Source: Planctomycetota bacterium | Lineage (GTDB): Bacteria > Planctomycetota > SZUA-567 > H5-PLA8 | Reading direction: 5' to 3' | DNA length: 40,010 bases | Assembly: GCA_038227875.1 (NCBI GenBank) | Contig: JBBRPR010000073.1 | Span: 1-40,010, forward strand | Shown: in pieces, positions 9,359 to 38,270 of the stretch | Numbering within the stretch: position 1 is the stretch's first letter | Layout: every line of letters starts with the position of its first letter | The notes under the pieces: generated by a model | Databases searched by the model: none | What the model was told of the DNA's origin: nothing | What the model saw: only the letters and a program-made list of their open reading frames with translations | Position numbers and translations under genes: made by a program

Positions 9359-9418
9359 TTTCCATTTTCCATTATTCATTTTCCATTTTCCATCGGAGCT
9401 TCATCACGCGAAGCTCCG
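9356..9418. repeat. Heptamer tandem repeat (CATTTTC x5, one variant) plus adjacent 9-bp-stem hairpin
   Basis: 9356-9390 CATTTTC CATTTTC CATTATT CATTTTC CATTTTC; 9394-9418 CGGAGCTTC-ATCACGC-GAAGCTCCG. Confidence 0.9.
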
Positions 9419-9439: not shown

Positions 9440-10525
9440 TCAGTACACTCCTTCGACCACTTTTTTCTCCAGCATTCCAAATGGCCGAACATCCCGCACA
9501 CCGTCCCACGGATACAGCGTGCAGGGCGGACGGCGGATGCATTCGTCGCGCTCAAGGAAGCGGGGCATGAAGAATTCCTTGGTCAGCGTGGTCAATTCAA
9601 CGCGGCCCCATTCGCCGTAGCCGACGGTCTGATCGGGATTCTTGGGGTCGATTACGCGCAGGACGGCGCGGGGCTGTGGCGCGAAGTACGTGGCGCTCCA
9701 GTTGTCTTCCGGTTCCAGCGGCTTGCTGCAGGCCAGGCCCATTAGCGTGTTGCCGTAGGTCGGCACGAACGCGGCGCGGTTTTCGAGAACTTCTTCAGTC
9801 AGGAAACGGATCATCTGCGGCGTCATCGACGTACCTCCGCAGAAAACGCCTTTAATACCAGCCTCTGTGACGTTGATCTTGTTGCTGAGCGCTTCGAGCA
9901 GCTTGGGCGTGGTGAAGAGGCAGTGGATACCTTTGCGATTTTTAAGCTGCGTTACGGCCTGGTCGATGACGTGTTCCTTGTATTCGTTGGCCTGGTCGAA
10001 TTTCTTCAGCGCCAGCAGCTTGACGACCCAGCGCGGATCGAGGTCGACGTGGTAACACGAACCGCCGCGCACGTTGGCCAGATGTTCGATCGCCAGACGC
10101 AGGCGGCGCGGACCGGTGGGACCAAGCATCAGCCACTTCGAGCCCTTCGGAAAGAATTCGTCGTTGAGTGTCGCGGAGAATTCCGTGTAGTCGACCTTAT
10201 GGTCTTCCCAGCTCACGCGCTGCTTGGGCATACCGGTAGTGCCGCCGGTTTCAAAGATGTGAAACGGGCGTGTCTTGTAAGCGTTGGGCACCCAGCGTTC
10301 ATTGGGTTCGTCGCGCAACCAGTCGTCCTGAAAATGATCGAAGTGCTTCAGGTCGGCGACGGACTTGACCTTCTCGACGGGATTCCAGCCGGCCTTCTTC
10401 GCCCAATCGAGCCAGAACGGCGTTCCGGTTTCAGGCGAAAAATGCCACGCAATGATTTCCCGCAGATGCGCGTCGAGTTTCTGCGAAGCCGTCTGGACGG
10501 CCGATTCCAACCCTGCTGCAGTCAT
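9440..10525 (-). CDS. EhpF/GriC-like adenylate-forming enzyme (short ANL superfamily member)
   Basis: WHFSPETGTPFWL, ETGGTTGMPK P-loop, PTGP, DLDPRWV, TTPKLL, PRFLERD and terminal VVEGVY match motifs I recall from Pantoea EhpF. Confidence 0.85.
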   Translation of the reverse strand: MTAAGLESAVQTASQKLDAHLREIIAWHFSPETGTPFWLDWAKKAGWNPVEKVKSVADLKHFDHFQDDWLRDEPNERWVPNAYKTRPFHIFETGGTTGMPKQRVSWEDHKVDYTEFSATLNDEFFPKGSKWLMLGPTGPRRLRLAIEHLANVRGGSCYHVDLDPRWVVKLLALKKFDQANEYKEHVIDQAVTQLKNRKGIHCLFTTPKLLEALSNKINVTEAGIKGVFCGGTSMTPQMIRFLTEEVLENRAAFVPTYGNTLMGLACSKPLEPEDNWSATYFAPQPRAVLRVIDPKNPDQTVGYGEWGRVELTTLTKEFFMPRFLERDECIRRPPCTLYPWDGVRDVRPFGMLEKKVVEGVY

Positions 10526-10558: not shown

Positions 10559-12364
10559 TTAAGCGGCCGGCGTCAGTTCCGGCTGCCCTGCCTTGATCTC
10601 AGTCGTTGCCGTCTTGGAGAAGTACCGTTCGATCGTCGCGGCGCTCGGAGGACGCGTCAGCAGCGATCCGATCACCATGCAGATGGCCGAACCGAAGACC
10701 ATCGGGACGACAGTCATGAAGCCCATTACGCGAATGTCGCCCACGACCTTCGCGGATTCCAGCCACGGCACCGAGGTGGCTTCAGCGCCTGGCACAATGA
10801 CGTCGCCGGTCTTGTAGTGGTATTGCAGATAACCGTAGAACACGAGCGACGCGGCGACGTAGAGCGTCGACGCCAGTGCGCCCCATTTAGTGGAGCGCTT
10901 CCAGAAGAGCGCGGCGAGCATCACCGGCGCCATCGCGGCGAATCCGGAGAAAGCGTAACGGATGGCGAGTTCGAAGATATTCGTCGCCGTCACCAGCGCC
11001 ACGCCGTAGGCGACAAGCGTCAGGACGATGATGAACGCGCGCGCAAACCAGACGCCTCCTTTTTCGCCGTACTTTTTCTGACCGCCGTAGTACTGGAAAA
11101 GGTCTTTCGTGAACATCGTGCTGATCGCAAGAACCTGATGGCAGTCGGAGCCCATCACGGCGGAGATGATGCCTGCGCCGAGGATTCCAGCCAGAACCGG
11201 AGGCGCGAACTGGTTGAGCAGCAGCAGAAGTACGCCGTCTTCCGTACCGGGGGGAACGGGCTGCTTGAGCACCTGCGACGCGATCACGCCGAGGAAAATG
11301 CAGGGAAGCCAGATCGCCATGATCGCCAGCGGGTAGAGCACCACGGTCCGTTTGAACGCGGATACCTTGCGCGCCGACAAACACATGATCGACATATGCG
11401 GGAACATGATCGAGGACAGTGGTATCAGCGTATAGCTCCAGAACTCCCGCTCAGAGATGCGCTCTCGTGTGACGTAGAAGCTCTTGGCCGGATCGTTGGC
11501 CATCTCTGTGAAGTACGACGCGAATCCATTCGGCAACTTTCCGCCGATCACCGCGATGGCGACCGTTCCGAATAAGAGGAAGAGCAACGTCTGGAAGATG
11601 TTCACCCAGACTGTGCCGCGCATGCCTCCGAAGAAGACGATCGACGTCACCGCGATGGCAACAATCGCCGCGCCGATTTCGAAGCTGACGTAGCAGTCGG
11701 CTTCCATCTTCGGAACCATCTTCACGTCCATCTTTGGTGCCAGGACGGGCTTGCCATCGGGCGTAAGGGCGGGCTTGCCGTCCTTGACGACGGGAATCAT
11801 CACCGGCTTGCCGTCTTCACCTTTTACTGGAGTCTTCTGTTCGACCATCACCGGCTGACCGTCTTTCATGACCTGGAGCATGACAACTCTGCCGTCGTCG
11901 CCCTTCTTGGAACTGATGTCGTGAAGCACGCGGCCGCCGCCCATGATGCTGATGATCATGTACGGAACCAGCATCGCGACGCTTAAGCCGAAGATGCAGG
12001 TACCAATCCCCGAACATTCCCAGCGGTCGCGGAAAAACTGGACCTGCGTCATATGGCCGAACCGCTTGCCCAACGACCAGAGGCGCGTGCCGATCAAAAA
12101 GATGGTCAGCGGAATCATGAAGCCGGACGACGAGGCCATTAATCCATACACGCCAACGCCGCGCCGGAAGGCCAGGCCTGAACTGCCGAGGATCGCGAAC
12201 GCGGTCATGTTCGTGGCGAACAACGACATGAAAAAGACCATCGGTCCGATGGTGCGGTTGGCGAGGAAAAAATCCTCTGTGTTATCTTTGGATTTACGGA
12301 AGGCAATGCTGCCAATGTAGAGCGTTACGGCCAGGTAGATGAAGACGACGATCACGGGAATCAT
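10559..12364 (-). CDS. Sodium:solute symporter (SSS) family protein with a large loop insertion
   Basis: EDFFLANRTIG, SLFATNMTAFAILG, FFGGMRGTVWVNIFQ, GIISAVM, LFWKRSTKWGA; many TM segments. Confidence 0.93.
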   Translation of the reverse strand: MIPVIVVFIYLAVTLYIGSIAFRKSKDNTEDFFLANRTIGPMVFFMSLFATNMTAFAILGSSGLAFRRGVGVYGLMASSSGFMIPLTIFLIGTRLWSLGKRFGHMTQVQFFRDRWECSGIGTCIFGLSVAMLVPYMIISIMGGGRVLHDISSKKGDDGRVVMLQVMKDGQPVMVEQKTPVKGEDGKPVMIPVVKDGKPALTPDGKPVLAPKMDVKMVPKMEADCYVSFEIGAAIVAIAVTSIVFFGGMRGTVWVNIFQTLLFLLFGTVAIAVIGGKLPNGFASYFTEMANDPAKSFYVTRERISEREFWSYTLIPLSSIMFPHMSIMCLSARKVSAFKRTVVLYPLAIMAIWLPCIFLGVIASQVLKQPVPPGTEDGVLLLLLNQFAPPVLAGILGAGIISAVMGSDCHQVLAISTMFTKDLFQYYGGQKKYGEKGGVWFARAFIIVLTLVAYGVALVTATNIFELAIRYAFSGFAAMAPVMLAALFWKRSTKWGALASTLYVAASLVFYGYLQYHYKTGDVIVPGAEATSVPWLESAKVVGDIRVMGFMTVVPMVFGSAICMVIGSLLTRPPSAATIERYFSKTATTEIKAGQPELTPAA

Positions 12365-12626: not shown

Positions 12627-14225
12627 TTACTTCTTCTGAATCGCAAACAGATGCGTGTTGGAGACGATGTACAGAACACCATTTGCGACCACTGGCGTGC
12701 TGCGAATGTAATCCTTCAGCTTCACGCGACTGAGAACTTTCGGTGCTTCCTTGGTCGCTTCCATGATGAACGCTTCCTTGCCGTCGTTGCCGAAATAGAT
12801 CTTACCATCGGCAACCATCGTCGAACCCCACATGCGGGCGCCGGACGGGAATTCCCAGTACTTCTTGCCGGTCTTGACATCGAAGCAATGAATGTAGCCG
12901 CTGAAGTCGCCGATGAAGAGCAGATCGCCGACAATAGAAGGTGAAGCGATGCTGCGGTGGATCTTGTCGGTGAACCAGATTTTTCCATCGCCGGTGATGT
13001 CGCCGGTCTTCGTCGCATCCCAGCAGGTGAGGACACCGTCACCGGCGCCGTGTTCGGGATCCTGCCCGTTGGCGACGTAGATGCGGTTGTTCAGGAAGAC
13101 CGGCGTCGAATCAATTTCGCTCGGACCTTTCGGTGAGGCGGGACCGTACGGATAGAAATTGCCGGAGGGCGATTTCTTCTGCTGCGGCAGCACGCCGTCG
13201 CCCCACCAGACTGTCTTTCCCGTTTCAGAATCGAGCGCGTAGAGACAACCGTCGGGGCCGCCGTAGTAGACTTGCTTCTTACCGTTGACCACGCCCAGCG
13301 ACGGATTCGACCAGATGCCGTGAAAGATGCGGCGGCTGATGCCGCAATCTTCGCGCGTGCTGTTGGCGAGGTTCAGTTCGTCTTCCCACAGTTCTTCGCC
13401 GGTCAGCTTATTGACGCAGAAATAACTGGGCGCGAGCGCCGACGGAACATAGCTATGTCCCCAATCGACGCCATTGGAGGTCGTGCAGAAGAGCCGATCG
13501 CCGTCGATCAACACGGAGCAGTTGCTGGCGTTGTGCGGAAACGCGCCGAGCACTTCGGGATCGCGCATGTCCATGCGCCAGATGATGTCGGCTTCGGTGT
13601 CGTCCACCGGCATCGATGCGAATTTGTCGAGTGGTTCGCCGGCAAGCTTGTCGGGATCCTTGACGTACATTCCTTCGTTCTTGAACGGGCCGCGGTTGCC
13701 TTTCTTTAAGCCATCGACCGACAGGCAGAGCAACTCGCCGCGATTGGTGACCACGTAGACGCGATCACCGTCGACCGTCGGTGAAGAACAGATGCCAATT
13801 TCCGGCCAGTCGTTGACGCGCCCTTCCTTGAGCTTCGGCACGGTGAGCTGCCACAAAAAATTTCCGGTCGCTTCGTCGAAGCACATCATCACGCCGCGGT
13901 CGCCGGTAATATTCGGGTTGCGCGGATTCTTGTTATTGGTGCCGACAAATACCTTGCCGCCGGAAACCGTAACATTGCCGTACGATTCCGACCCAAGCTT
14001 CGCCGCCCACTTGACATTCTTGGCTTTGGAAACATCCCAATCGCCCTTCGCCGTCCACTCGCCAGGGCTCCAGTCGTCGGGCAGATTCTTTTCATCGGAG
14101 ACCATGTTGCGGTTTTGCCCGCCACCCCACTGCGGCCAATCGCCCGCGCGAGCCCCCCAGCTCACAGCAGCCAGAACCAAACCCAGCATCACGTTGGAAG
14201 TTGAGGCGATAAATGTTTTGCTCAT
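12627..14225 (-). CDS. Secreted PQQ-like beta-propeller repeat protein
   Basis: Signal peptide then DWPQWGG...RNMVS, multiple propeller blades; ATG 14225 with GAAAGGAAAG RBS. Confidence 0.88.
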   Translation of the reverse strand: MSKTFIASTSNVMLGLVLAAVSWGARAGDWPQWGGGQNRNMVSDEKNLPDDWSPGEWTAKGDWDVSKAKNVKWAAKLGSESYGNVTVSGGKVFVGTNNKNPRNPNITGDRGVMMCFDEATGNFLWQLTVPKLKEGRVNDWPEIGICSSPTVDGDRVYVVTNRGELLCLSVDGLKKGNRGPFKNEGMYVKDPDKLAGEPLDKFASMPVDDTEADIIWRMDMRDPEVLGAFPHNASNCSVLIDGDRLFCTTSNGVDWGHSYVPSALAPSYFCVNKLTGEELWEDELNLANSTREDCGISRRIFHGIWSNPSLGVVNGKKQVYYGGPDGCLYALDSETGKTVWWGDGVLPQQKKSPSGNFYPYGPASPKGPSEIDSTPVFLNNRIYVANGQDPEHGAGDGVLTCWDATKTGDITGDGKIWFTDKIHRSIASPSIVGDLLFIGDFSGYIHCFDVKTGKKYWEFPSGARMWGSTMVADGKIYFGNDGKEAFIMEATKEAPKVLSRVKLKDYIRSTPVVANGVLYIVSNTHLFAIQKK

Positions 14226-14281
14226 GCTTTCCTTTCCCGCAACCGAAGTCCAAATCACACCGTCGGAACTGACTGCCGCGC

Positions 14282-16660
14282 TCACTTATCGTTCGGAGTG
14301 ATGCTGAGGTTGTCGACGTACACGGGCGCTTTCGGGCTGAAACCAAAGATGCCTGGCGTGCCGCTTTCGTTGGGCGTTTTCTGCTCGGCGGTGATCGTCC
14401 ACTCCGCCGGTTCGGCCTCTCCCTTTGGCCAAACCTTGCCGCGGATTGTACCCTTCTTGGTTGCGGGATCGATGCGCACGTCGGTCTTCATCGTGTACCA
14501 GACGCCCGGATCCCATTTAAAGTGCACCGACTTCTGGAAGAGTTCGGCGTTGCTGGTGATGATCAGGCGCTGCGACGTGCCCTGGAGCACGATCATGTAT
14601 CGCTGGTTGAGCAACCCCACGTCCGACATGCTGGAGAGACGTTTCTGGCCAGCGACCGTGCGGAACTTGCCGTCGCTCATCATGTCTGCCTGAATCGTGT
14701 AGTTGGACATATCGGAATGACCGATGAAGGTGAACGCGCGCTGGAAGAGGCCGTCTTCAATGGTCTTCGCCAGAACTTTGCTGCCGCCGACTTCGCGAAT
14801 CTCCCATTTGAAGCGCGCGCCGATCCACGAGAGTGGCGGATACGCGAACGGTACTTTCTGGTGGGTCTCGGGGAACTTCGGATCGTCGGTCTTGATCAGC
14901 GTAAACTTTTCGAAATCTTCCGTCAGTGGAAGTCCGGGCAGGACGCGTCCGCGCGTCGTGCCGGAGATGCCGTCCACCTCGCCTTTGAAAGCGCCGGCGG
15001 AGGGCGTGGTCTTTTCGCCGACCACCAGAGCACCGCCTTCGATTTCGCCATCCAGTTCCGACTTCACCAAAGCGTACGGGGGAATGTAGTGCGCCCACTT
15101 GGCCGCCGCGCCTTCTTTGGACGCGAGCCACTGACCGTTCTTGTCGACTTCGATGATGCGAAGCGGCTGCTTGTCTTTCGGGTGCAGCAGCATGTCGGCG
15201 GGAACGACCAGCATTTTCGCGGGAGCTTCTGGAGCCACCACGGGAGCAGGCGCTGCAGCAACCGGCACAGGTACAGGCGCATCTTTCGCGCCGATGCAGT
15301 ACAGCCGGCGCGTGGTCTGGAAATAAACGCGTCCGCCGAAAATCGAGGGCGCGCCGTAACAGTTTTCTTCGTTGCCCAGTTTTGCTTCGGTCAGCACGTC
15401 GCAGCCCGAACCATCTGCCTTGATCTTCAAGATGAAGAACACGCCGTCCTGAATGGCCACATACAGCTTGCCATCGCCATAGGTCGGAGCGCTGGTGCGC
15501 TGTTCGCCGCCCAGATTTTGCGGCTTGGCCCACAGGTTCTTGCCAGTCTCGGCGTCCAGGCAGTGCAGATTGGCGACGTCGTCGACGAGGAACACCTTAT
15601 TGTCGCCCAGCGCCGGACTCGATGCGAAGCTCAGCATGTCGTCGTTGCGCCAGACTTCCGCCGTGGCGGGAAGTTCCGGCGTCACCGGCGCTTTGGTTGG
15701 ATCCGGCGGCGGCGCCTGAAAATCTCCGGGACGGACGGCGACCATGCTGCCGGTGATGGAGCTGTTCATGTTCGAGTTGCCATGGACTGCGAGGGTCAAA
15801 TCCTTGTACATCAGGAGCGAGGCGTTGATGCCGCCTTCGCAGATTTGACGGCGCCAGATAGGGTCACCCGTGCGTGCGTTAACGCAGTAGACCGAGCCGT
15901 CGCCGCCGCCACAATAAAATACCCGCATGTTTTTGTAGAATCCCAGCACCGGCGTCGAATACGAGCTGTCACGCGGACGCACGCCCGGCTGCGAGGCCCA
16001 GATCAGGTCGCCGGTCTTCTTGTCGAAGCCGTAGAAGCGGTGTGCCGCCGGACCGTGCGCGCCCCAATTCGAGGTAATGCCGCTGGCGATCACCAGCTCC
16101 CCGTCGATCACGGGGCTTGCCGTGCGGCCGTTGGGGAACGTCATGCGGCCGAACTCTTCCATCATATGGTGGGACCAGAGCATTTTGCCGTCGGGCGTGA
16201 ACGCCGCGAGGATGCCCTGCGTGCCCTGCATATAGATGTTGCCAGTCTCCGGGTCGATCGCCGGAGAAGAGCTGGCGTAACGCGTGTAAATGATGTCGCT
16301 GAGGTAGTCGTTAAACAGCGCACGCCACTTTTCTTCGCCGGTATTGGCGTCGACGCAAAAAAGGCCTTCCTGAAGATTCTGCCCCTTGCCGATGTAAGCC
16401 ATGACGTAGAGCCGGCCGTTGGCGATGACGGGAGTCGACTGCCCGGGAATATCCGCCGTCCAGAGCGAGTTCTCGCCATCGGGCGTCCATTTCTCGGGAA
16501 GGTTCTTTTCGTCGCTGGACCCATTCTGGTGCGGACCGCGCCAGCTCAACCAGCCGTCAACGGGTTTGGGTGCCGGTTGTGGATCGGCAGCGAGAACGCA
16601 GCCGAGTGAAAGAATAGTACAGAAGAATGGAACAAGCAGTGGCGTCCGTCGGAGAGTCAC
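14282..16660 (-). CDS. Secreted PQQ-like beta-propeller protein with C-terminal beta-sandwich (lectin/DUF1080-like) domain
   Basis: Signal peptide, WLSWRGP, propeller repeats, Pro/Ala linker, C-terminal WYTMK...GKVWPKGEAEPAEW; GTG start with GGAGG RBS. Confidence 0.85.
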   Translation of the reverse strand: MTLRRTPLLVPFFCTILSLGCVLAADPQPAPKPVDGWLSWRGPHQNGSSDEKNLPEKWTPDGENSLWTADIPGQSTPVIANGRLYVMAYIGKGQNLQEGLFCVDANTGEEKWRALFNDYLSDIIYTRYASSSPAIDPETGNIYMQGTQGILAAFTPDGKMLWSHHMMEEFGRMTFPNGRTASPVIDGELVIASGITSNWGAHGPAAHRFYGFDKKTGDLIWASQPGVRPRDSSYSTPVLGFYKNMRVFYCGGGDGSVYCVNARTGDPIWRRQICEGGINASLLMYKDLTLAVHGNSNMNSSITGSMVAVRPGDFQAPPPDPTKAPVTPELPATAEVWRNDDMLSFASSPALGDNKVFLVDDVANLHCLDAETGKNLWAKPQNLGGEQRTSAPTYGDGKLYVAIQDGVFFILKIKADGSGCDVLTEAKLGNEENCYGAPSIFGGRVYFQTTRRLYCIGAKDAPVPVPVAAAPAPVVAPEAPAKMLVVPADMLLHPKDKQPLRIIEVDKNGQWLASKEGAAAKWAHYIPPYALVKSELDGEIEGGALVVGEKTTPSAGAFKGEVDGISGTTRGRVLPGLPLTEDFEKFTLIKTDDPKFPETHQKVPFAYPPLSWIGARFKWEIREVGGSKVLAKTIEDGLFQRAFTFIGHSDMSNYTIQADMMSDGKFRTVAGQKRLSSMSDVGLLNQRYMIVLQGTSQRLIITSNAELFQKSVHFKWDPGVWYTMKTDVRIDPATKKGTIRGKVWPKGEAEPAEWTITAEQKTPNESGTPGIFGFSPKAPVYVDNLSITPNDK

Positions 16661-16714
16661 GTTAAGTTTTCCTCCAGTGCATCAAAGCAAGGGACCAGCC
16701 ATGTGTCGGAGTGA

Positions 16715-16743
16715 GATTATACCTATACGTACTAATTTCACAA
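16715..16743 (-). promoter_or_regulatory. Putative sigma70 promoter of the 9-gene operon overlapped by a palindromic operator
   Basis: Minus strand TTGTGA-16 nt-TATAAT (16743-16716); 16715-16736 matches palindrome ATTAGTACGTATACGTACTAAT at 17/22. Confidence 0.65.
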
Positions 16744-16756
16744 TGTTTTCTACACC

Positions 16757-17299
16757 ATGAAAAACGACAAAGCAGAGAATTTTTTAGCCCCCGGCGAAAT
16801 CCCACAAACTGGCCCCGTGCGGCGCCTTCCGCCATTATTACGTCGCGCCTGGTACAATTTGAATCAGACTTTCCGCCGCCGCATCGCCCACACCGGCCTG
16901 ACGCCCGATCAGTATACGATTCTCCGCCTGCTTTCTGAAGGCCCGCCCGAAGGCCTTACCCAGCGCGAATTGTGCGAGCGCATGTGCTCGGACCCGAACA
17001 CCATGGCATCCCTGCTGTCGCGTATGGAGAAATGCAACCTGCTGGAACGGCGCACGCACGAAGACGACCGCCGCGCGCACCGCGTCTCCGTTCTTCCCGA
17101 AGGCCGACAGCACTTTGTTGAATTGCGCACGATCGCCCTCGACCTTCAGGAATCGATCCTCGACGCCGTGCCGCTCAAGCGCCGCGAGCAATTTCTGCTC
17201 GATCTTGAACGCGTCGCGGATGCCTGCCAGACCCAGTTGAATGCTGAAACCTCCCGCCAAAAAGGTTTGGGGAAAAAGCGAAAAAACGATACAGTTTAA
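16757..17299 (+). CDS. MarR family transcriptional regulator
   Basis: GLTPDQYTIL, LTQRELCERM, LSRMEKCNLLER, DDRRAHRVSVLPEG; divergent from the operon. Confidence 0.93.
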   Translation: MKNDKAENFLAPGEIPQTGPVRRLPPLLRRAWYNLNQTFRRRIAHTGLTPDQYTILRLLSEGPPEGLTQRELCERMCSDPNTMASLLSRMEKCNLLERRTHEDDRRAHRVSVLPEGRQHFVELRTIALDLQESILDAVPLKRREQFLLDLERVADACQTQLNAETSRQKGLGKKRKNDTV

Positions 17300-17338
17300 G
17301 CTGTCGTCACCCTCCTACATTTTGCAAAGGACGGCAGC

Positions 17339-18832
17339 ATGGCCATCACCATTGAACGGTGCCCGCATTGCGGCGCGCCATACATGAGCGCAATGTTGCC
17401 GGGAGAAAATCCGGCCGAGCGGAGTTGTTCGAGCTGCAATAAGCGCGCCGGCGATCCGCGCGGTACGACTGCGACGTCCGCTCCCCGCCCCATTTCCACG
17501 GCCAGTTCCGACGATGAATTGTCGCTGCAGCCCATCGAGACCGCGGCTTCGGCCGGTGTCATCGTCACGCACAAACAGCCCGACGCCCGCGGACAGCTTG
17601 TGGGACAGATTCAGTCCAGAGGCAACGCGGGAGTTCCCGGGCTGCCCAGCGACGCCCCCGATTACGAACCGCCGCCGAAAGCGCCGCTGTTTACCGTCGC
17701 ATCGACGATCCGGCTGGTGGTCCTGCTGGTTGTGCTGGTGCTCGTTTCGAAATTGGTTTACGGCGTCTACCAACGGGAATTCGACAAGCCGATCGTTCCG
17801 ACCGCTCCGCCGCCGGCCGTGCCGACCGTGGCCGAAATGACCAAGCCGCCGCCGACTCCAATCAAACCAGTGGCCGCAACGCCGCCGCCCAAGCCCGTCG
17901 AGAAACCGCCGGAGGTGGTCGTCAAGCCTGCCGGTCCTCCCGCCAGGCCAAAAGAACTGCTGAACGACGGTGGTGGAGGGAACGAGGATGTCAACGCGCT
18001 CATTGCCGGCGGAAGCCGCCAGAAATCGCGGAATACCGACGACGACGCGCCGGACGTCGAGGTCAAGAAGACTCCGCCGCAGCCGCCGCCCACGGCTGGA
18101 AAAACCGGAACGGTGACGCCGCCGGGATTACCACCCGATAACTCCAAAGACCCCATGATCGCGCTGCTTGAAAAAAACAAGGCAGGCGCGCAACCGCCGC
18201 CAGGTCCGAACCCTCCCGATTCGCCACCCAACACGATCAACAATCCGCCGCCCCCGGGGGGCACGCCACCGATTACGCCGGGCGTCAATGCTCCACCGCC
18301 CAAGACCGGGATGATGCCGGAAGGTCCCATCGTCAGCACGACGCCTGTGGTGATTCTGCCGTTGCCAGGCACCATCCCCGGCGCCTCCTTCCTCCGCGAT
18401 TACAACGGCTGGTTCTGCCGCGATTACGATGAAGCGCGCTCCCTGCGCGAAAATGTCTTTCATGGGCGCAACAACGTCGTGATGTTGAAACCGATCCAGC
18501 GAGGCCCAGCGAAACTCTGTGCGCTGATCGAAGTTCCGAAAGCCTTCGCCAACAAGAAGCCGGAATTGGTTTTCGAAATCACCTCCAAAGATCCCGCTCA
18601 CGTCTGGCTGCTCCACGCCACCATCGAAGGCGCGGAAGTGCTGCGGCAGACGGAAGTGAAGATCACCGACTCCAAACCGTGGATCGAAAACCGCATTGAT
18701 CTGACCAACTTCTCCAACCGACGTTTCCTGTTGCAGCTGGAAATTCTGCCGCCGGCCCCCGGAGGCAAGCCGGGCTCGGACGTGGATTACGCCGGGTACA
18801 TCCGGAACATGCATCTTGTTTGGGCGAAGTGA
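17339..18832 (+). CDS. Hypothetical membrane protein: N-terminal Zn ribbon, one TM, Pro-rich linker, C-terminal globular domain
   Basis: CPHC...CSSC, LVVLLVVLVLV TM, long Pro-rich region. Confidence 0.75.
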   Translation: MAITIERCPHCGAPYMSAMLPGENPAERSCSSCNKRAGDPRGTTATSAPRPISTASSDDELSLQPIETAASAGVIVTHKQPDARGQLVGQIQSRGNAGVPGLPSDAPDYEPPPKAPLFTVASTIRLVVLLVVLVLVSKLVYGVYQREFDKPIVPTAPPPAVPTVAEMTKPPPTPIKPVAATPPPKPVEKPPEVVVKPAGPPARPKELLNDGGGGNEDVNALIAGGSRQKSRNTDDDAPDVEVKKTPPQPPPTAGKTGTVTPPGLPPDNSKDPMIALLEKNKAGAQPPPGPNPPDSPPNTINNPPPPGGTPPITPGVNAPPPKTGMMPEGPIVSTTPVVILPLPGTIPGASFLRDYNGWFCRDYDEARSLRENVFHGRNNVVMLKPIQRGPAKLCALIEVPKAFANKKPELVFEITSKDPAHVWLLHATIEGAEVLRQTEVKITDSKPWIENRIDLTNFSNRRFLLQLEILPPAPGGKPGSDVDYAGYIRNMHLVWAK

Positions 18833-18870
18833 CCGCTGCAAGTTTGCGCTCGCCGGCTCGTTAGCATGAT

Positions 18871-20721
18871 GTGAAGACGAACCGAATCCGGTGCTCCGCC
18901 GTCGGCGCAGCGCTACTGGCGGCGTTGGTTTTCGGCGCCGCGTGGGGTGGCGAGGATGCCCCCGGCGGGGTCTGGTCGTTTCGCAACGGGTTTGGCGGGC
19001 ACTTTCCGGACGCCACGCCGCCTCTGAGTTGGAACGCCACTGAAAACGTCGCGTGGCACCTGCCACTCAAAAAACGAGCGAACGCGTCTCCAATTATTGT
19101 CGGCGACAAAGTCTTCACGCTCGAAGAGCCGAGCACGCTGTTGTGTGTCAATAAAGCCGATGGCCGAGTGCTCTGGTCGCGCCCGAACACGCTTTCGGAT
19201 GTGCTCGGAGAAGGTGCGAAAGATCGCGCCGCTTTGCCGCGCACAGATTGGCTCAGCACGTACGGATACACGACGCCGACACCGGTCTCCGATGGAATGC
19301 ATGTCTGGTGCGTGTTCGGGCATGGCATCGTCGTCTGCTACGATCTTGATGGCACGAGAGAGTGGTTCGCGGAATTCAATGTCGCCGACAAGATCAGTGG
19401 CGTTGCTGTTTCGCCATGCTTGATTGATGGCGTGCTGCTTGTTGGCGGCAAAGGCGATGATCGACTGTGCGGATTCGACGCTGCGACCGGGAAGAAGCTC
19501 TGGCACACCGACGAGGGCACGCAGGAAGGTTCCTGCGTGCCGATCACGCTGAACGGGAAGCATTACGCCGTGGCATCCGCGGGAATCCTGCTGGATCCGC
19601 ACACGGGCCAGATCCTGCAGCGCAACCTGCTCGGGGCGGGATTTCAAGGCGACGGTTCCAAGCTGCCGGTGAACTGGGGACCAACCGTGCTGGTGGATGG
19701 AAATACGGCGTACTTCCACGCGCACTTTCAGCCCAATCAATACAACACGGTACTTCGCGCCGTGAAACTCGATGCCGATGCAGCGCCGCAGCAGCTCTGG
19801 GAATTTTATCCCAACACCCATTCAGACATCCGCGGTCGCATGGGAAATTCGCCGCTGCTGCTCAACGGACTGCTCTACGCGATCAAAGACAGCGGCATGC
19901 TGCAAGTCTTCGCTGCCCCGACCGGCGCGCTCGTATATGAACAGCAATTGCCGCGGCATTCGTATGCCAGCCTCGCGTTGGCCGGGCCGTACATCTACGC
20001 GTTCGGCGGCAGCATCGTCACGATCTTCAAACCCGGCAAAGTCTTCGAGCAAGTGGCGCAGTTCAAACACGGCTTCACGGATTTCATCGCCTCTCCGGTT
20101 TTCGAAAATCGACGCCTGTATTTCCGCGACAGCACCGGATTGTGGTGCATCGAAGCCCCGGCCGCAGCCGCCCCCGTATCTTCGGTGGCATCTACAGCAG
20201 CGCTCAGCGACACCGGTCCCGACCTCGCCGACACCGCGAAGACTGCACCGCTGCTCTCGTATTCGGAGTGGCTGCTGGAGTACGACCAGACGCGCCTGCC
20301 ACTGCGCCGCTTCAGTTTGATTTTCGAATGGTCCTTCGCGGCGCTGGCAATCGTATTGGGCCTCTGGGCCGTGCGACGCGCGGCCGCGCCGCCCCGTTTT
20401 CGCGTGCTGACCGTCTTTGCCATGCTGCTCGCGGGATTGACGCCGTTATTGATGTTCACCGATCGCGTCGGCAATGCGTATTATCCCGTCGGCGTGTGGT
20501 GCGTCGCCGGCGGCCTGATCGCGTGGAAGTACCTCACACAACCCACGCCAGCAGTTCACCGCAAACATCTACGCCCGGCGCAAAGAGAATTTTCGTCGTT
20601 TGCAAAAGCGTACATGCTCTCGTGGGGCTGGCTGCTCGGCGGAGCCGCCGGCCTGGCGATTCACCACATCCCCTTTCAACTCACACTGATGTGGTACGTC
20701 CTCACCGGCTGGCAGAAATAA
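18871..20721 (+). CDS. PQQ-like beta-propeller protein with C-terminal TM helices
   Basis: Signal peptide, WSFRNG...PPLSWNATENVAW, ASPIIVGDKVF, TPTPVSDG; about 4 hydrophobic segments at the C-terminus. Confidence 0.82.
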   Translation: MKTNRIRCSAVGAALLAALVFGAAWGGEDAPGGVWSFRNGFGGHFPDATPPLSWNATENVAWHLPLKKRANASPIIVGDKVFTLEEPSTLLCVNKADGRVLWSRPNTLSDVLGEGAKDRAALPRTDWLSTYGYTTPTPVSDGMHVWCVFGHGIVVCYDLDGTREWFAEFNVADKISGVAVSPCLIDGVLLVGGKGDDRLCGFDAATGKKLWHTDEGTQEGSCVPITLNGKHYAVASAGILLDPHTGQILQRNLLGAGFQGDGSKLPVNWGPTVLVDGNTAYFHAHFQPNQYNTVLRAVKLDADAAPQQLWEFYPNTHSDIRGRMGNSPLLLNGLLYAIKDSGMLQVFAAPTGALVYEQQLPRHSYASLALAGPYIYAFGGSIVTIFKPGKVFEQVAQFKHGFTDFIASPVFENRRLYFRDSTGLWCIEAPAAAAPVSSVASTAALSDTGPDLADTAKTAPLLSYSEWLLEYDQTRLPLRRFSLIFEWSFAALAIVLGLWAVRRAAAPPRFRVLTVFAMLLAGLTPLLMFTDRVGNAYYPVGVWCVAGGLIAWKYLTQPTPAVHRKHLRPAQREFSSFAKAYMLSWGWLLGGAAGLAIHHIPFQLTLMWYVLTGWQK

Positions 20722-20777
20722 TTCAGGCGGCGAGCAATTGCATAACAAAATCGCGCTCTCTTTCGCACATCATAAAC

Positions 20778-20812
20778 ATGACCGATGACCCATGCCCCAT
20801 GACCGATGACTC
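20778..20812. repeat. Heptamer tandem repeat (ATGACCG-like x5)
   Basis: ATGACCG ATGACCC ATGCCCC ATGACCG ATGACTC between convergent stops. Confidence 0.85.
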
Positions 20813-20814
20813 TG

Positions 20815-21765
20815 TTAATTAGTGCCGATGCTCTCGACGCCCAGCCCGTAAAACGTGTATTCGCAATCGGAAATCTGTTCGAGCGCAAACCCCGCATAGC
20901 CGCCTTGCGCGTCTTCCAAACTGCGCGCGTATTTCAGTGCGCCTTCGACGTAGCGCGGGTCGAGTTTTCCGAGCATCTTCAGCGTGAACAGTCCGGTGTA
21001 GGTGCTGAGCAGATCGGCGATCGGCGCGGCTGGTGTGGCGTAAAATCCGCCCTCACCGCTGAACATGCTGGCGATGAATGCCGCGTGAGGTTCGGGATCG
21101 ACAGGGTCTTCAAGAATCACCGAGAGCGCAATGGCCGCCGCGCAACCGTTGGTGCCCGGCCGCTTGCTGTAGCGATTCTCAAGAAATCCGCCGCTGCTCT
21201 GCGTCAGGCTGCGCAGCAATTCGCGTCCGTGTTCGGGCTTGGGCAGATCAACGCCCATCCGCATATAAGCGCAGGCCGCCAGAAAAGTGTGATAGAGACT
21301 GCCGCACGCATCCGTATCCGTCTTGGCCCAGCCGCCGTCTTCGCGACGTAGCGCATCGAGCCGCGAGACCGTGGCGTCGCGCGCCGCTTGCCGCTCCGTT
21401 TCGGAAAGCGCCGCTCCCCCGCCCTCTTCGCACAACGCCCACGCATCCCACCACGATGCCGCCATCACCGCATCGCTGAACGCGCCCTTTGGCTGTCGAA
21501 TGCGCGCCGCCGGTGATTCGTTCAACAACGCGCGGAGGTATTGCTGCGCACGCGATGCGACATCGGACGAGAGCTCATTCAGCGAAGAGAGACTGCGCAG
21601 AGCGAAGGTCGTGTAGTAGAGCTCCGAGTTGCCGCGCCGGTTGGCAAACGCGCCGTCCGCATTTTGTCGCGCGAGAATCCATGCCGCGTGGCGCGCGCGA
21701 TATTCGGCGGGCGTCGCAGCGAGACCCATGCGAACGTCGTCGCGAAGGAGAGCGAGGAAACTCAT
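20815..21765 (-). CDS. Prenyltransferase/squalene oxidase repeat protein (single alpha/alpha barrel)
   Basis: QNADGAF..ELYYTTFAL, DGGW..SLYHTFLA, EGGF..DLLSTYTGL, GGY..SDCEYTFYGLG repeats. Confidence 0.87.
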   Translation of the reverse strand: MSFLALLRDDVRMGLAATPAEYRARHAAWILARQNADGAFANRRGNSELYYTTFALRSLSSLNELSSDVASRAQQYLRALLNESPAARIRQPKGAFSDAVMAASWWDAWALCEEGGGAALSETERQAARDATVSRLDALRREDGGWAKTDTDACGSLYHTFLAACAYMRMGVDLPKPEHGRELLRSLTQSSGGFLENRYSKRPGTNGCAAAIALSVILEDPVDPEPHAAFIASMFSGEGGFYATPAAPIADLLSTYTGLFTLKMLGKLDPRYVEGALKYARSLEDAQGGYAGFALEQISDCEYTFYGLGVESIGTN

Positions 21766-21775
21766 GCGCAGCGCG

Positions 21776-23698
21776 TCAATCGAGCAGCGTCGCAGCCAGG
21801 AACGTGAACAATGCCATCAATCCGTCGTGGTTCACGGACTCCACGGCTTTCATCGCGCGCACGCGCTGATTGTCGGCGAGCAACGCCGCCTGCAGCGGGA
21901 TCTCGTGCTTGAAGTAGATCTCCTTCAGGCGCTCAAGCTTCACAGTTGTTTGCGGACCTTCGCGGGCGGCCTTGAGTAGGTCGGCGCGTTCGGCGTCGTT
22001 GGCGGCTTCAAGCGCGAGCGCGTAGAGCAGCGTCGGACGGCCTTTCAGGATGTCGCCGCAGGCTTCGACCTTATTGCTGATATCGCCTTCGACGTCCTTC
22101 AAGTCGTTCTGGATCTGATACGCGACGCCGAGGTGCTTGGAGAACTCCGAAAGTTCGCGATCCCATTTGCCGTCGCCGCCGCCTAGCACCACGCCCGAAT
22201 ACAGCGCTGCGTCGAACGCCGGTGCCGTTTTCAACGCGTAAAGTCGCAGACATTCGATGCCCTGAATGTTCTTCTCGCCGCCTTTGCGCCAGAGCAACTC
22301 AGCGCCCTGGCCTTCGGAGAGCCGCACGTGCGAGGCGGCCATCTTCTTGAGAATGCGCACAGATTTTTCCGCGCCGATGCTGTCGAGTTCATCGGCGATC
22401 AAGCGGTAGCCTCGCCCGAGCAGGTAGTCGCCGATGTTCAGCGCGATCGGGACGGAGTGCGACTTATGGAGCGTTTCGGTGCCGTAACGGAAATCGTCGT
22501 CGTCTTCGATGTCGTCGTGAATCAGCGACGCTTTGTGAAAAATCTCCATCGCAGCCGAGATGCGTTTGACGCTCATCGGCACTTCTTCTTCGTCGGTCAG
22601 CGCCTGCCAGGCCGCGGCCGTGACGAACGGGCGGAAGCGCTTCCCGCCCTTGCGCATCCACGCCAGCGAAATGCGTTCGGCTTCGGCGACCTTGTCGCCC
22701 TTCGGAGCACTCCCGCGTTCGGACGGCACGATCTCCGCCAGCGGCTTGGGATCAAAGTAGTGGCCGACATCGCGCAGCAGCGGCACGAAACTGCGCGTGC
22801 GTTTCGCGCCGGTCTTCTGATAGCCGATCGCGGAAAGCACCCAGTCTTCGTCGACTTCGGTGTTGTGACAGGTGTCGCGCAGCAGCGGAATCGCCAGCGA
22901 GGGGATGCCAACCTGCAGCACCTTGTCGAATGCCTTCTCGAGCACGTTCAAGCAGGCGATGCCAAGGATGCCGTCGACTTCACCCGTGGCGATCAGCTTC
23001 AGCACAATCGGCGTGCCTTCGGCGACGAGAACGTTGTAGCCCATGCGTTCGCCGACGCTGTTCAAGTCAGCGATCGAACAGAGTCCGCAGTTGTTGCAAT
23101 GGAGCTGGACGTCGTCCATTTTCGCAGTGCAGTTTTCCGCCTGCTTCAGGCAGTGCGGCATCAGGAAGAGGCGTTTTTCAAACGGAATCGCGGCAAACTC
23201 TTCGCGCCAGTACTCGTTGTTGATCAGCACCATCGCAAAACCAATAAAAGTGTGATCGTAGCCGAGCGGCTTAAGCAGTTCTTCGGCGGCCTTGAACAAG
23301 ACCTGCTTGTTCGGCGGCCGGTTGCGCGGAATTTTCGCCGCGACGGCAACGGCCTGTTTGCGGATCAGTTCGCGCTGCTCTTTGGATTCCGGAATGGATT
23401 TGAAATTCTCGCCGGCGGGCCGCCATTCGTCATGGCGGTACGCTACTGGCGCACGGGCTTCGACGGTTCCCGACTCGGGATGACGGATCAATTCCTGAAC
23501 GAGATTCGATTCCGACTGCGGAACGTTGGCCACTTTTTCCAGCACGCCGAAATTACCGCCAGGAAGTTGCACGCCTTTGGCCGCGGCGACCGCAAGAGCG
23601 TCAAGCGGACCTTTTGACGAGACCGGCCGCGCTTCTGGAACGGCAACAGGAGCGGCTGCAATGGGGAGTGGAGTGGTCTGTACGTCGGTGGTTTTCAT
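21776..23698 (-). CDS. DUF116 domain fused to a trans-polyprenyl synthase domain
   Basis: Cys-rich PHCLK..C..HCNNCGLCSI..GIAC (DUF116-like); GGKRFRP, HDDIEDDDDFRYG, GQGAEL, KTA, YQIQNDLKD; ATG 23698 overlaps the upstream stop (ATGA). Confidence 0.88.
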   Translation of the reverse strand: MKTTDVQTTPLPIAAAPVAVPEARPVSSKGPLDALAVAAAKGVQLPGGNFGVLEKVANVPQSESNLVQELIRHPESGTVEARAPVAYRHDEWRPAGENFKSIPESKEQRELIRKQAVAVAAKIPRNRPPNKQVLFKAAEELLKPLGYDHTFIGFAMVLINNEYWREEFAAIPFEKRLFLMPHCLKQAENCTAKMDDVQLHCNNCGLCSIADLNSVGERMGYNVLVAEGTPIVLKLIATGEVDGILGIACLNVLEKAFDKVLQVGIPSLAIPLLRDTCHNTEVDEDWVLSAIGYQKTGAKRTRSFVPLLRDVGHYFDPKPLAEIVPSERGSAPKGDKVAEAERISLAWMRKGGKRFRPFVTAAAWQALTDEEEVPMSVKRISAAMEIFHKASLIHDDIEDDDDFRYGTETLHKSHSVPIALNIGDYLLGRGYRLIADELDSIGAEKSVRILKKMAASHVRLSEGQGAELLWRKGGEKNIQGIECLRLYALKTAPAFDAALYSGVVLGGGDGKWDRELSEFSKHLGVAYQIQNDLKDVEGDISNKVEACGDILKGRPTLLYALALEAANDAERADLLKAAREGPQTTVKLERLKEIYFKHEIPLQAALLADNQRVRAMKAVESVNHDGLMALFTFLAATLLD

Positions 23699-25467
23699 GC
23701 CGCTGTCGCCGCCTCGATGCCATGCCGCGTTTTCGCCAGCGCGCCCAGCCCGCCGAGCGCGTAATAAAGCGGATACAATTCCTCGTAGTACCAGAGAACC
23801 GCAAAGTAAAACCCAATCGGTGCCGGATTCCACGACCCGTCCGCGCGCTGATGTTCGACCAGCCACTGCGCCGCGCGCTGGCATTCGACGTCGTCGAACG
23901 TGTAGCCTTGCGCAACAAGTGCTCGAAGCGCGAGTCCGGTTTCTTCAGCGGTGCTCGGTGCGCTGGATGTGCCGCCGAAACCGCCGTCCGAGTTTTGGAT
24001 GGAGAGCAGCCATTTCAGTGCCCGCTTCTTCATCGCGTCGGCACACGTTACACCGTTACACGCCAGGAGCACATGAACCGTACCATAGGTTTCATTACTT
24101 TCGTGCGAACTGCTTTCGCAACCAAACCACAATGGACGAAACGCACCGTCATCACGTTGAACGCTGGATAAATACGCGTATCCAGCAGTGAATACCTCGC
24201 GTGTAAGCCCGAACGAATTCTGCGCCATCAGTTTGTATTGGTCGGGAAACAGCGCGCGCAAGGCGTGAGCCGTCAAATCCGGAGCGCTACGGTCGAATGG
24301 CAATTTCTCCCAGCCGCGGCAGAACGTAGGCCATCCACCGTTCCGGTTCCGCAATTGAATCAGCCATTCCGTTCCCGAAGCGATTGCTGCGTGATTCTCC
24401 GGCACGCCCAAATGCCGCAGCGCAATAATCGCCCCCGACGTGTCATCCACATCCGGCACGCTTCCCGCGAGGTGATTCCATCCCCACCCGCCCGGCTGCG
24501 TGTCGGAGTACACCGACCGCGTCATGCATTGCTGCTGCAGCAACCAATCGCGCGTCGTCGCGCGTTCAGATTCGCTGAGCGCCGTCTCAAGCAACCCGCC
24601 AGCGGCGAGCGCATCGATGGCGCGCGTCGTGTTCCAGACGGATAGATTCACTTCGACCGGCCAGGATCCATCCTCGCGCTGCGTGCTGATCAGGAACTTC
24701 CGCGCGTTCTTCGCAATCGGATGATCGGCGCGGCCGGCCGACTTCAGGCCGATCAAGCAGAACGCGGTGATCGGAGACGCTTCCAAGTAGCCGCCGCTCT
24801 CTGGCTGCATCTTTAAAATCGCCTCGAGCGCCTGTTCCGTAATGCGGTTCCGCCACCAGCGGATCGGCGCAAACCAACTGGGCGCTTTCGCATGGCGCGA
24901 CAAGCCGACGCAGACTAGCGCCGGCAGCGCGTAACTGACGACCGGCAGCCGCAGTGCACCCATCAACGAGCGCGGCGCCAGTGCAAGTTCAAACGGGAGC
25001 GCATCCACATCGTTCCACGTGAACGATTGCAGCCCTGCATGCGCTGCCGTCATCCGAATCGGAACCTGAAACGTCAAATCGCTGCCGTACACGCGCCGCA
25101 AACCTTCGCGCACGCCGCCGAGCTTCTCCGTGTATGCCAGTCCGCACTTCCGCGCGTCTGCGGAGAGAAACGCGTTGCACGCGTCCGCACAGAGCACGAG
25201 CAGCGACGCGGCGAGATTGCTTTTGCTGATCTCCGTGTCGCCCCAGCCGCCGTCGGCGTTCTGCGTCTTTGAAAGATAAGCGTAAGCGGAAGTCCAGCGC
25301 GCCGCCGGAAGATCGTCGCGATCCAGCGCGCACAGCGCCACGGCTGTTCCCAGCGGAGACGACGCCAGCCGACCTTCCCAATATCCCGCCGAATTTCGCC
25401 CCGCGACCAGCGCGTTCAATGCGCGATCGACAGAAGACGCCAATTCCGTGGGGGTAAAGTTCGCCAT
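23695..25467 (-). CDS. Squalene-hopene-cyclase-like class II terpene cyclase
   Basis: PDVDDTSGA (DxDD), QW repeats QNADGGW, QREDGSW, QNSDGGF, QRADGSW; GGWPTFC, PDLTAH. Confidence 0.88.
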   Translation of the reverse strand: MANFTPTELASSVDRALNALVAGRNSAGYWEGRLASSPLGTAVALCALDRDDLPAARWTSAYAYLSKTQNADGGWGDTEISKSNLAASLLVLCADACNAFLSADARKCGLAYTEKLGGVREGLRRVYGSDLTFQVPIRMTAAHAGLQSFTWNDVDALPFELALAPRSLMGALRLPVVSYALPALVCVGLSRHAKAPSWFAPIRWWRNRITEQALEAILKMQPESGGYLEASPITAFCLIGLKSAGRADHPIAKNARKFLISTQREDGSWPVEVNLSVWNTTRAIDALAAGGLLETALSESERATTRDWLLQQQCMTRSVYSDTQPGGWGWNHLAGSVPDVDDTSGAIIALRHLGVPENHAAIASGTEWLIQLRNRNGGWPTFCRGWEKLPFDRSAPDLTAHALRALFPDQYKLMAQNSFGLTREVFTAGYAYLSSVQRDDGAFRPLWFGCESSSHESNETYGTVHVLLACNGVTCADAMKKRALKWLLSIQNSDGGFGGTSSAPSTAEETGLALRALVAQGYTFDDVECQRAAQWLVEHQRADGSWNPAPIGFYFAVLWYYEELYPLYYALGGLGALAKTRHGIEAATAA

Positions 25468-25562
25468 TCCGCCTTTCGCCTTACTTCACTTCACCTATAC
25501 GACGATCAACCCACACCATGGTTGAATTTGAGACTTTTCGAGCCGATTCCTGAAGCCGTCCG

Positions 25563-26756
25563 CTATCCCAGCGCTGCCATTCCAAAGAACACCTGTTTCT
25601 TCAAGAACCGGTAGACCCAGTAGTCTTCGGGAATTTCGTGGTCCGGATTGTGATGGCTGTGCCGCGGCGTGATCGCGTTCAGTTCCTGAAAGGCCGTGTT
25701 GCGCCCGGAGTAGTCCGCCGCGCCCGACGTCTTGATGAATTCGTGGAGCTCCTGCGGATGCTCCAGGATCACGCAGCCTTTCGTCCGCTTCTTCACAAAC
25801 TTCGTGAAGCCGCGGAGGTACTCGCTTTCGTTGATCGTCTTGTACAAGTCTCCGCCATTATCGCTGACGCGTTCCTTCGCGAACGAAAGCGCGGGGCAGA
25901 TTTCGATGCTGCCCTGCGGCCCGATGTGATACCCCAGCCCCATCGCCGCGGGGCAGAAGGCCTCGCCTGTCGCGGTCCAGTAGGTATCGATGATCAGGAT
26001 CGGGTGTTTGCGGCGCAACTCCAGCAATCGCTTGCGCATCCACACCAATTGCTCCTTCTTGACGCAGTATTCCGGATGCGGCGGCGTGCCCATCGGGCGG
26101 TAGACGTAGTACCAGATGTACATCGCGCCGCGGTCGATGAAGTGCTGTACGTATTCATCGCTCATCACCTCCGCCATATTACTCCCAGTGGCGGTGCAGG
26201 CGGTTCCAAACAAAATGCCCTTTTTCTTCAGGCGCTTCATGCCTTCGTCGGCGGCTTCGAACACGCCCTGACCGCGGCGCAGATCGTTCTGCTCCTTGAA
26301 ACCATCGATGCTGATCAGCGGCGTGACGTTGCCGACTTCGGCCAGCCTCTTCACGTTCTCTTCGGTGAACAGCATGCCATTGGTGATGGTCTGGAAATAA
26401 CAATCTTTATGGCGCGCGAAGACATCGAAGATGCCTTTGTGCATGAACGGCTCGCCACCGAGCAGCGTGTAGTAGAAGGCCTTGTTCTTTTTACCGGTGT
26501 TGATGATGCCGTCGAGATTCTCCGGCGTCATGTAGTTGGCGTTGCCTTCTTTTTCGACCCAGCAGCCGTGGCAGCGCAAATTACAGGTGTTGGTCAGCGC
26601 GATGAACATGAACGGCGGGTAGAGCTCGTCGTTCTTCATGCGTTTTTTGTATGCCGAAATAGCACGCATGCCCTTGAACGCATAGAGGTACCCCGCTTTA
26701 AGCGCCAGCCGGGGCGAGAGTTCAGTGGCCAGTCGATAGGCATAGCGGGTCAGCAT
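25563..26756 (-). CDS. Radical SAM protein with C-terminal Cys-containing (twitch/SPASM-like) extension
   Basis: TNTCNLRCHGC, LGGEPF, TNG, ISIDG, FCPAA...IEICP...GCVIL. Confidence 0.9.
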   Translation of the reverse strand: MLTRYAYRLATELSPRLALKAGYLYAFKGMRAISAYKKRMKNDELYPPFMFIALTNTCNLRCHGCWVEKEGNANYMTPENLDGIINTGKKNKAFYYTLLGGEPFMHKGIFDVFARHKDCYFQTITNGMLFTEENVKRLAEVGNVTPLISIDGFKEQNDLRRGQGVFEAADEGMKRLKKKGILFGTACTATGSNMAEVMSDEYVQHFIDRGAMYIWYYVYRPMGTPPHPEYCVKKEQLVWMRKRLLELRRKHPILIIDTYWTATGEAFCPAAMGLGYHIGPQGSIEICPALSFAKERVSDNGGDLYKTINESEYLRGFTKFVKKRTKGCVILEHPQELHEFIKTSGAADYSGRNTAFQELNAITPRHSHHNPDHEIPEDYWVYRFLKKQVFFGMAALG

Positions 26757-26768
26757 GTTTTTACCTAA

Positions 26769-26790
26769 ATTAGTAAGCTTACGTACTATT
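26769..26790. promoter_or_regulatory. Putative MarR-type operator upstream of the terpenoid operon
   Basis: ATTAGTAAGCTTACGTACTATT, 18/22 to the same palindrome as 16715-16736; 12 bp upstream of the ATG. Confidence 0.6.
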
Positions 26791-34929: not shown

Positions 34930-35060
34930 TGCCACAGACCTCGCCCGAGAAGAATTGTCGCTACCCAACATAAATCCAGAACTGACAGAGCATTAGACAC
35001 CCGCACCGGCCCCGCACCCGATTAGACTACGCCCATGCGCAGAAGTTTCACGAAAATACT

Positions 35061-38080: not shown

Positions 38081-38152
38081 GGCCCCGTAGCCAAGTGGTA
38101 AGGCGACGGTTTGCAAAACCGTTATACGCCGGTTCGACTCCGGCCGGGGCCT
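38081..38152 (+). tRNA. trnC: tRNA-Cys(GCA), CCA not encoded
   Basis: Acceptor GGCCCCG/CGGGGCC, anticodon arm ACGGT-TTGCAAA-ACCGT, T arm GCCGG-TTCGACT-CCGGC, U discriminator. Confidence 0.97.
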
Positions 38153-38182
38153 TTACAGAGTAAAGACTTACAAGAGTGACTT

Positions 38183-38242
38183 TATACTACACCTATACTA
38201 CGCTCTAGTTGACCTGTAGTATACTACATGCTATGCTACACC
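38183..38242. repeat. Putative integrase arm-type sites (TATACTACA-like repeats)
   Basis: TATACTACACC, TATACTACGC, TATACTACAT, TATGCTACACC plus palindrome TGTAGTATACTACA at 38215-38228. Confidence 0.7.
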
Positions 38243-38270
38243 TCACTTGAAACCCTGTGAGGACTCCCAA

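Follow-up and report, generated by a model that had tools for sequence, protein, structure and literature searches.

A 40,010-nucleotide contig of a Planctomycetota bacterium (JBBRPR010000073.1 of assembly GCA_038227875.1; the whole contig, part of a 9.34-Mb genome, is the window analyzed here) carries two 22-bp palindromic sites, site 1 at 16715..16736 and site 2 at 26769..26790. Site 1 lies in the divergent gap between a MarR-family regulator gene (16757..17299, plus strand) and operon A (minus strand, 16660 to 4190), and site 2 lies in the divergent gap between operon B (minus strand, 26756 to 20815) and a GH123 gene. Both belong to a motif whose conservation extends across those planctomycete and verrucomicrobial genomes that have the adjacent marR gene; they are likely MarR binding sites and, as such, would link an aromatic acid operon (A) to a terpene cyclase operon (B). 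We propose that the conserved palindrome is probably the operator for a dimer of the adjacent MarR, which would repress operon A and, to a lesser degree and in certain lineages only, operon B.

The original prediction had described the two sites as imperfect copies of one perfect palindrome, and the match counts it gave, 17/22 for site 1 and 18/22 for site 2, were borne out. Only seven positions in the genome reach at least 17/22, and a search of the window for the perfect palindrome with up to three mismatches returned no match, because both sites differ from it at four to five positions. The 9-mer common to the two sites, TACGTACTA, occurs exactly twice in the window, compared with 0.02 copies expected, a count reached in 0/100 shuffles; there are nine copies across the genome. 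The sites are AT rich, as had been noted, with 42% and 45% GC in the surrounding gaps versus 59.6% in the genome.

The dyad of site 1 reaches to about 16711-16740, and the site is 54 bp from the GTG start of operon A and 20 bp from the ATG of marR. It had been placed over the -10 element and spacer of the operon A promoter, and a σ70-like promoter (TTGTGA-16-TATAAT, minus strand 16743-16716) does overlap it. A TACACC element at 16749-16756 (GGTGTA on the operon A strand), which most family members have about 14 to 17 bp from site 1, is possibly the true -10 region of this promoter, in which case transcription would start immediately before the operator. Between the end of site 2 and the ATG of the first gene of operon B are 12 bp, again as described, and the divergent GH123 gene is 125 bp away; no consensus promoter was found around site 2.

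The consensus of 49 distinct operon A sites is the palindrome AATAATACGTATACGTATTATT, in which TACG and GTA, read towards operon A, are invariant in 49/49. With a matrix built solely from the sites of family relatives (the family-only matrix), site 1 ranked first in the genome at 28.3 bits and site 2 twelfth at 16.4 bits; with a wider matrix, site 1 scored 29.3 bits and site 2 scored 13.8 bits (rank 14). The genome-wide scan that the original prediction had called for showed the motif to be rare, with 20 matches of at least 12 bits, mostly just before genes. Eighteen of the 20 are intergenic, compared with an intergenic share of 19.5% of the genome by crude gene calls, an enrichment that AT-rich gaps inflate somewhat. 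Column-permuted matrices gave 3 to 15 matches of at least 12 bits per 3 Mb versus 6 for the real one, and a loose-pattern scan of 50 genomes was uninformative, with similar control counts among the matches listed.

The product of 16757..17299 contains a MarR winged-helix domain (PF01047, 44.3 bits; PF12802, MarR_2, 47.6 bits; both above the cut-offs). A PDB search with this protein retrieved 52 sequences at E values of at most 1e-8, nearly all of the MarR family, with a best E value of 3e-14. The protein fell short of each named MarR model that it matched: HpaR scored 40.5 bits against a cut-off of 121.2, and four other NCBIfam models were also below cut-off. Inspection of orthologous upstream regions, likewise suggested at the outset, revealed the site before 11/11 marR orthologues of the family. 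The marR gene, the EhpF-like gene of operon A, and the pattern are shared by the same 11 of 16 family relatives, and the other 5 have none of the three.

Orthologues of this MarR span Planctomycetota and Verrucomicrobiota, with 324 loci, of which 80 were analyzed; 8 family duplicates were set aside, as were 3 loci whose upstream DNA was too short, leaving 69 evaluable nonfamily loci. The site was found in 30/30 of those with a divergent operon A and in 0/39 of those without, and downstream control stretches contained it in 0/72. The refutation set out in the original prediction, as far as it was run computationally, was not borne out: the motif is rare and conserved, rather than common in AT-rich intergenic DNA and unconserved in orthologues. 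Among the genomes without a site before marR, 37/40 have the operon A head gene elsewhere, and such detached operons kept a site of at least 12 bits in 24 of the 30 loci examined; of the 6 site-less loci, 2 are truncated at contig ends and the other 4 reach 3.5 to 9.0 bits. The idea of two MarR subfamilies with different DNA specificities was rejected, as proteins with and without an adjacent site interleave on the tree (nine changes); the two groups have a common recognition-helix consensus.

Among 301 sampled Planctomycetota genomes, the operon A head gene was found in 57 and this MarR in 14, all 14 within the 57. The site was present at the operon A head in 6/6 nonfamily genomes with marR, which are all of that kind, and in 0/34 genomes without it, the latter being 34 of the 43 marR-negative genomes with the head gene. 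One of the six positive sites is identical to a site of the second training set, and all were rescored with the family-only matrix, which gave 14.8 to 26.4 bits in marR-positive genomes and at most 6.0 in marR-negative ones. Paired contrasts fit the same rule, both within a genus (G115, with marR, versus G178, without) and within a family (G359 versus G231). An operator is expected to be an AT-rich palindrome of about 16 to 22 bp over the target promoter that co-occurs with its regulator across genomes, and the motif has these properties.

Several observations weigh against this reading. Stand-alone marR genes lack the site within 400 bp upstream (0/39), so that the usual MarR autoregulation is not seen; autoregulation is possible only in the divergent layout and is not a conserved feature. 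The genomes are related, and the counts overstate their independence. In some marR-negative genomes the propeller gene that was used as the operon A head is not the first of the operon; about 2.4 kb upstream was scanned. DAHP (3-deoxy-D-arabino-heptulosonate 7-phosphate) synthase, considered as a core regulon member, was rejected, with a strong site in only 2/12 genomes.

The proposed link of operons A and B through a shared operator fared unevenly: it is probably real in this genome, but it is lineage restricted. Directly before orthologues of the first gene of operon B, which encodes a radical S-adenosylmethionine (SAM) enzyme, the site was absent in 14/14 family relatives. Further up, where operon B is longer, its leader contained the site at 18 to 21 bits in 3/14 (G002, G010, and G014), and the site of G014 is identical to site 2 at 19/22 positions, including the same departure from the invariant G. 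The remaining 11/14 have no operon B site, and the distant radical SAM loci have none either (0/33; truncated loci are among them, and in many the identity is about 40% and cyclase neighbors are missing). By score alone, site 2 is near chance, 13.8 bits being the level of permuted matrices; one of its halves is perfect, and the other is changed at the otherwise invariant G of the right half. Operon B genes also occur in three family genomes (G003, G008, and G011) for which no marR, operon A, or motif was detected. All of this, together with the location of site 2 within a divergent gap, at 125 bp from GH123, would suit an explanation in which site 1 is a true MarR operator and site 2 is a decayed copy, a chance resemblance, or an element for GH123, with no control of operon B.

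We consider that explanation unlikely. Only 15 of 5,957 gene upstream regions in this genome score as high as site 2, and the gene that starts 12 bp from it clusters with operon A elsewhere; genes of operons A, B, and C (a further operon, described below) are physical neighbors in several other genomes (e.g., L199 and L202). The leader sites of the three relatives also argue against it, and GH123 was not found beside any of them. Site 2 thus seems, with somewhat less assurance than the operator as a whole, to be a functional, lower-affinity, and lineage-restricted operator. The notion of a regulon of two operons holds insofar as both sites are copies of one motif, but the regulon extends outside the window, to a stronger site (27.5 bits) on contig C5 and to weaker ones before several propeller genes.

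What was observed directly is the motif, its conservation, its promoter location, and the way it accompanies this MarR across genomes; from these we infer binding and, as the mode of action, repression over activation. The MarR dimer on the dyad would block RNA polymerase at operon A, and site 2 would put the cyclase and polyprenyl synthase genes of operon B under the same control. Activation, with MarR on the palindrome recruiting RNA polymerase from a position immediately 5' of the -35 element, is improbable but has some features on its side: 63 operon A flanks contain 45 matches to TTG(A/C)(C/A)-type hexamers directly after the site, starting at offsets 20 to 28, and the stand-alone marR genes without a site would also suit an activator. 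Against it, the distance to promoter elements varies. In many Verrucomicrobiota the site lies 0 to 6 bp before, or overlaps, such a -35 hexamer, and site-to-hexamer spacing varies over 8 bp, which fixed activator geometry would not predict and which suits a repressor better; furthermore, site 1 covers the predicted -10 element, and site 2 is just 12 bp from a start codon.

Still less probable is a palindrome bound by another, unlinked regulator or recognized as part of a promoter by an alternative sigma factor. Co-occurrence was scored for this MarR, and the 6/6 versus 0/34 distribution of the site, paired contrasts included, follows it; a 22-bp dyad with invariant half-sites is not sigma-type. 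Dispersed REP-like (repetitive extragenic palindromic) repeats or RNA hairpins are scarcely credible, since the contrast between genomes with and without marR and the sites at detached ubiC-like genes (below) largely refute them: REP- and BIME-like (bacterial interspersed mosaic element) repeats run to hundreds of copies, lie mostly after genes, and are species specific, and the motif is set apart from them by its few matches, its placement before genes, and orthologous positions conserved across two phyla. Neither site matched an Rfam family; plus-strand folding of site 1 is modest (z = -2.2), and there is none at site 2 (z = 0.8 and -0.2).

All genes of operon A are on the minus strand. The first (14282..16660), which also heads the operon in relatives, encodes a PQQ-like beta-propeller protein with a signal-peptide-like N terminus and is followed by genes for a second beta-propeller protein (12627..14285, by family scan) and a sodium:solute symporter (10559..12364, PF00474). 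The EhpF-like adenylating enzyme (9440..10525) matches PDB structures 3l2k and 3hgu of EhpF over its full length (E = 5e-45). The neighboring aldehyde dehydrogenase (ALDH)-fold protein (7919..9379, PF00171) is predicted, by analogy, to be a GriD/EhpG-like reductase partner. Family scans identified an iron-containing alcohol dehydrogenase (Fe-ADH; 6683..7915) and a third beta-propeller protein (5543..6679), and the last gene encodes a HemN-like radical SAM enzyme (4190..5533; matches to HemN, 1olt, and NocN, 9p2u). In relatives, the hemN-like gene is followed by ubiC-like, halogenase-like, family 4 glycosyltransferase (GT4), and thioesterase genes.

In this genome, the same four genes, with which operon A ends in several relatives, make up a separate operon C (C5:45289-48942; L082 and L288) with a 27.5-bit site 25 bp upstream. 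The ubiC-like gene, when detached from operon A, has its own site in 5/5 genomes, including this one (18.6 to 27.5 bits), compared with 0/6 family genomes in which it is part of operon A, after hemN. The halogenase-like flavoprotein can be classed by sequence as flavin-dependent halogenase-like, with GxGxxG and WxWxIP motifs and PDB halogenase matches at an E value of 1.6e-60. The chorismate lyase-like (UbiC-like) protein had no sequence match in Pfam, NCBIfam, or PDB; its protein language model neighbors (0.94 to 0.98) include clusters with 15 to 19% Chor_lyase or Rv2949c members.

Operon B, also on the minus strand, begins with the radical SAM enzyme (25563..26756, CxxxCxxC motif) and continues with a squalene-hopene cyclase (SHC)-like protein of 590 amino acids with an intact DVDD motif (23695..25467). 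Family scans assigned the remaining products as a fusion of DUF116 with a polyprenyl synthase (21776..23884) and a prenyltransferase alpha-alpha toroid protein (20815..21765). In relatives (L045, L046, L049, L199, and L205), operon B starts with genes for GcvH-like, CobW-like GTPase, and ferredoxin-like proteins, which in this genome are scattered on contigs C27, C22, and C29.

Elsewhere in the genome, weaker copies of 11 to 20 bits stand about 18 to 42 bp before genes for propeller-like secreted proteins (C6:131644, C11:96652, C40:57389, C34:44007, and C14:67272). Upstream regions reach at least 12 bits in 3/11 WRGDG-type propeller paralogues versus 25/5,963 other genes, which is suggestive of regulon membership for these paralogues. 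A site precedes the gene of a secreted DUF6600 protein both in this genome (C26:58220) and in G001 (L055), and small secreted-looking proteins similar to it lie after sites in other relatives. One membrane protein, judged from its sequence to resemble a cation:proton antiporter, has strong sites of 24 to 30 bits before its gene at L067, L074, and L081 (G016, G013, and G009). Three further sites of 21 to 23 bits (C7:43636, C48:40611, and C23:81197) lie near a major facilitator superfamily transporter-like gene, near an ArsR-like gene, and in a divergent gap.

The ligands that release MarR proteins from DNA are typically aromatic acids. In the proposed mechanism, this MarR would respond in that way to an aromatic acid, for instance 4-hydroxybenzoate or one of its halogenated or reduced derivatives, because the regulon has a chorismate lyase-like protein, a flavin-halogenase-like protein, an EhpF/GriC-type acid reduction set, a symporter, and, in two relatives, DAHP synthase. 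A bolder proposal, possible but doubtful, is that the operator marks one pathway of Planctomycetota and Verrucomicrobiota to a halogenated, reduced, and glycosylated meroterpenoid derived from hydroxybenzoate. Its aromatic head would be derived from chorismate via DAHP synthase, UbiC-like protein, halogenase, EhpF/G-type reductase, and HemN-like methylase, and its ring system would be made by three proteins of operon B: the DUF116-polyprenyl synthase, the toroid prenyltransferase, and the orphan SHC-like cyclase. An aromatic intermediate would be what MarR senses. If true, such a pathway would supply the missing substrate of the SHC-like cyclases of the Planctomycetes-Verrucomicrobia-Chlamydiae (PVC) group.

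Other features of the window include a gene directly after marR (17339-18832) for a proline-rich protein of 497 amino acids that has no Pfam or NCBIfam family and whose C-terminal domain has homologues beside operon B in G009. A bacterial alpha-2-macroglobulin gene (28705-34971; 2,088 amino acids) was also found. At the contig end, a tRNA gene followed by a tyrosine integrase gene in low-GC DNA (38081-39854; 42 to 44% GC) is the edge of an integrated element.

The particular regulon described here occurs in two phyla that have been little studied, and no published account of it was found: a full-text literature search, with subscription papers and curated regulon databases outside its scope, returned no paper on this regulon or motif. 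The operator shows which genes act together, reuniting operon A with the split-off chorismate lyase-like and halogenase-like operon. In this lineage, it also attaches an operon with an SHC-like cyclase, whose product is left open in the portions of the literature available to us (PMC7306690 and PMC12324236). The operator also has a practical use: in a cultured carrier, deletion of marR should activate the pathway, which could then be mined for metabolites.

Repression by a MarR protein at a palindromic operator is in itself ordinary and familiar. HosA, PcaV, HpaR, and CouR are MarR repressors that sense aromatic acids, and all four are among the PDB matches of the window MarR (8aga, 4fht, 7el2, and 6c28, respectively). 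As here, a winged-helix MarR is divergent from its target, an AT-rich dyad of about 20 bp lies over the promoter, and the targets belong to aromatic acid metabolism. The window MarR differs from them in that the similarity is distant, the operator sequence is another one, the targets look biosynthetic, and stand-alone marR genes have no operator.

EhpF and EhpG form a two-protein carboxylate reductase in griseoluteic acid formation. In the window, the full-length EhpF match at 9440-10525 is followed by an ALDH-fold gene. EhpF is treated in the part of PMC3175449 available to us, and GriC and GriD of grixazone biosynthesis are described in the excerpted text of PMC10179220 as adenylating and reducing an aryl acid; the likeness of the latter pair to that of operon A is by description, not by sequence. 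In contrast to both systems, no phenazine or grixazone core genes were found in the window or the loci examined, and the reductase pair is joined to an Fe-ADH, a symporter, and propellers.

Planctomycete SHC-like cyclases have been described as keeping their catalytic residues, with a polyprenyl synthase nearby and products unknown (PMC7306690, in part), and their function as not demonstrated, with the product still to be identified (PMC12324236, in part). The 590-amino-acid protein of operon B fits this PVC SHC-like description, by which alone it was compared, in its intact DxDD motif and adjacent polyprenyl synthase; a regulator, an operator, or a link to an aromatic acid operon is not described in the available portions of these two accounts. 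In Planctomycetales strain 10988, baaAB, for 3,5-dibromo-p-anisic acid, comprises adjacent chorismate lyase-like and flavin-halogenase genes (10.1101/723874), and the main text of that report, as far as it was available, does not contain the term "MarR." Operon C has the same chorismate lyase-like/halogenase pair, likened here to the available description of those genes, and differs from baaAB in the GT4 and thioesterase genes that follow the pair.

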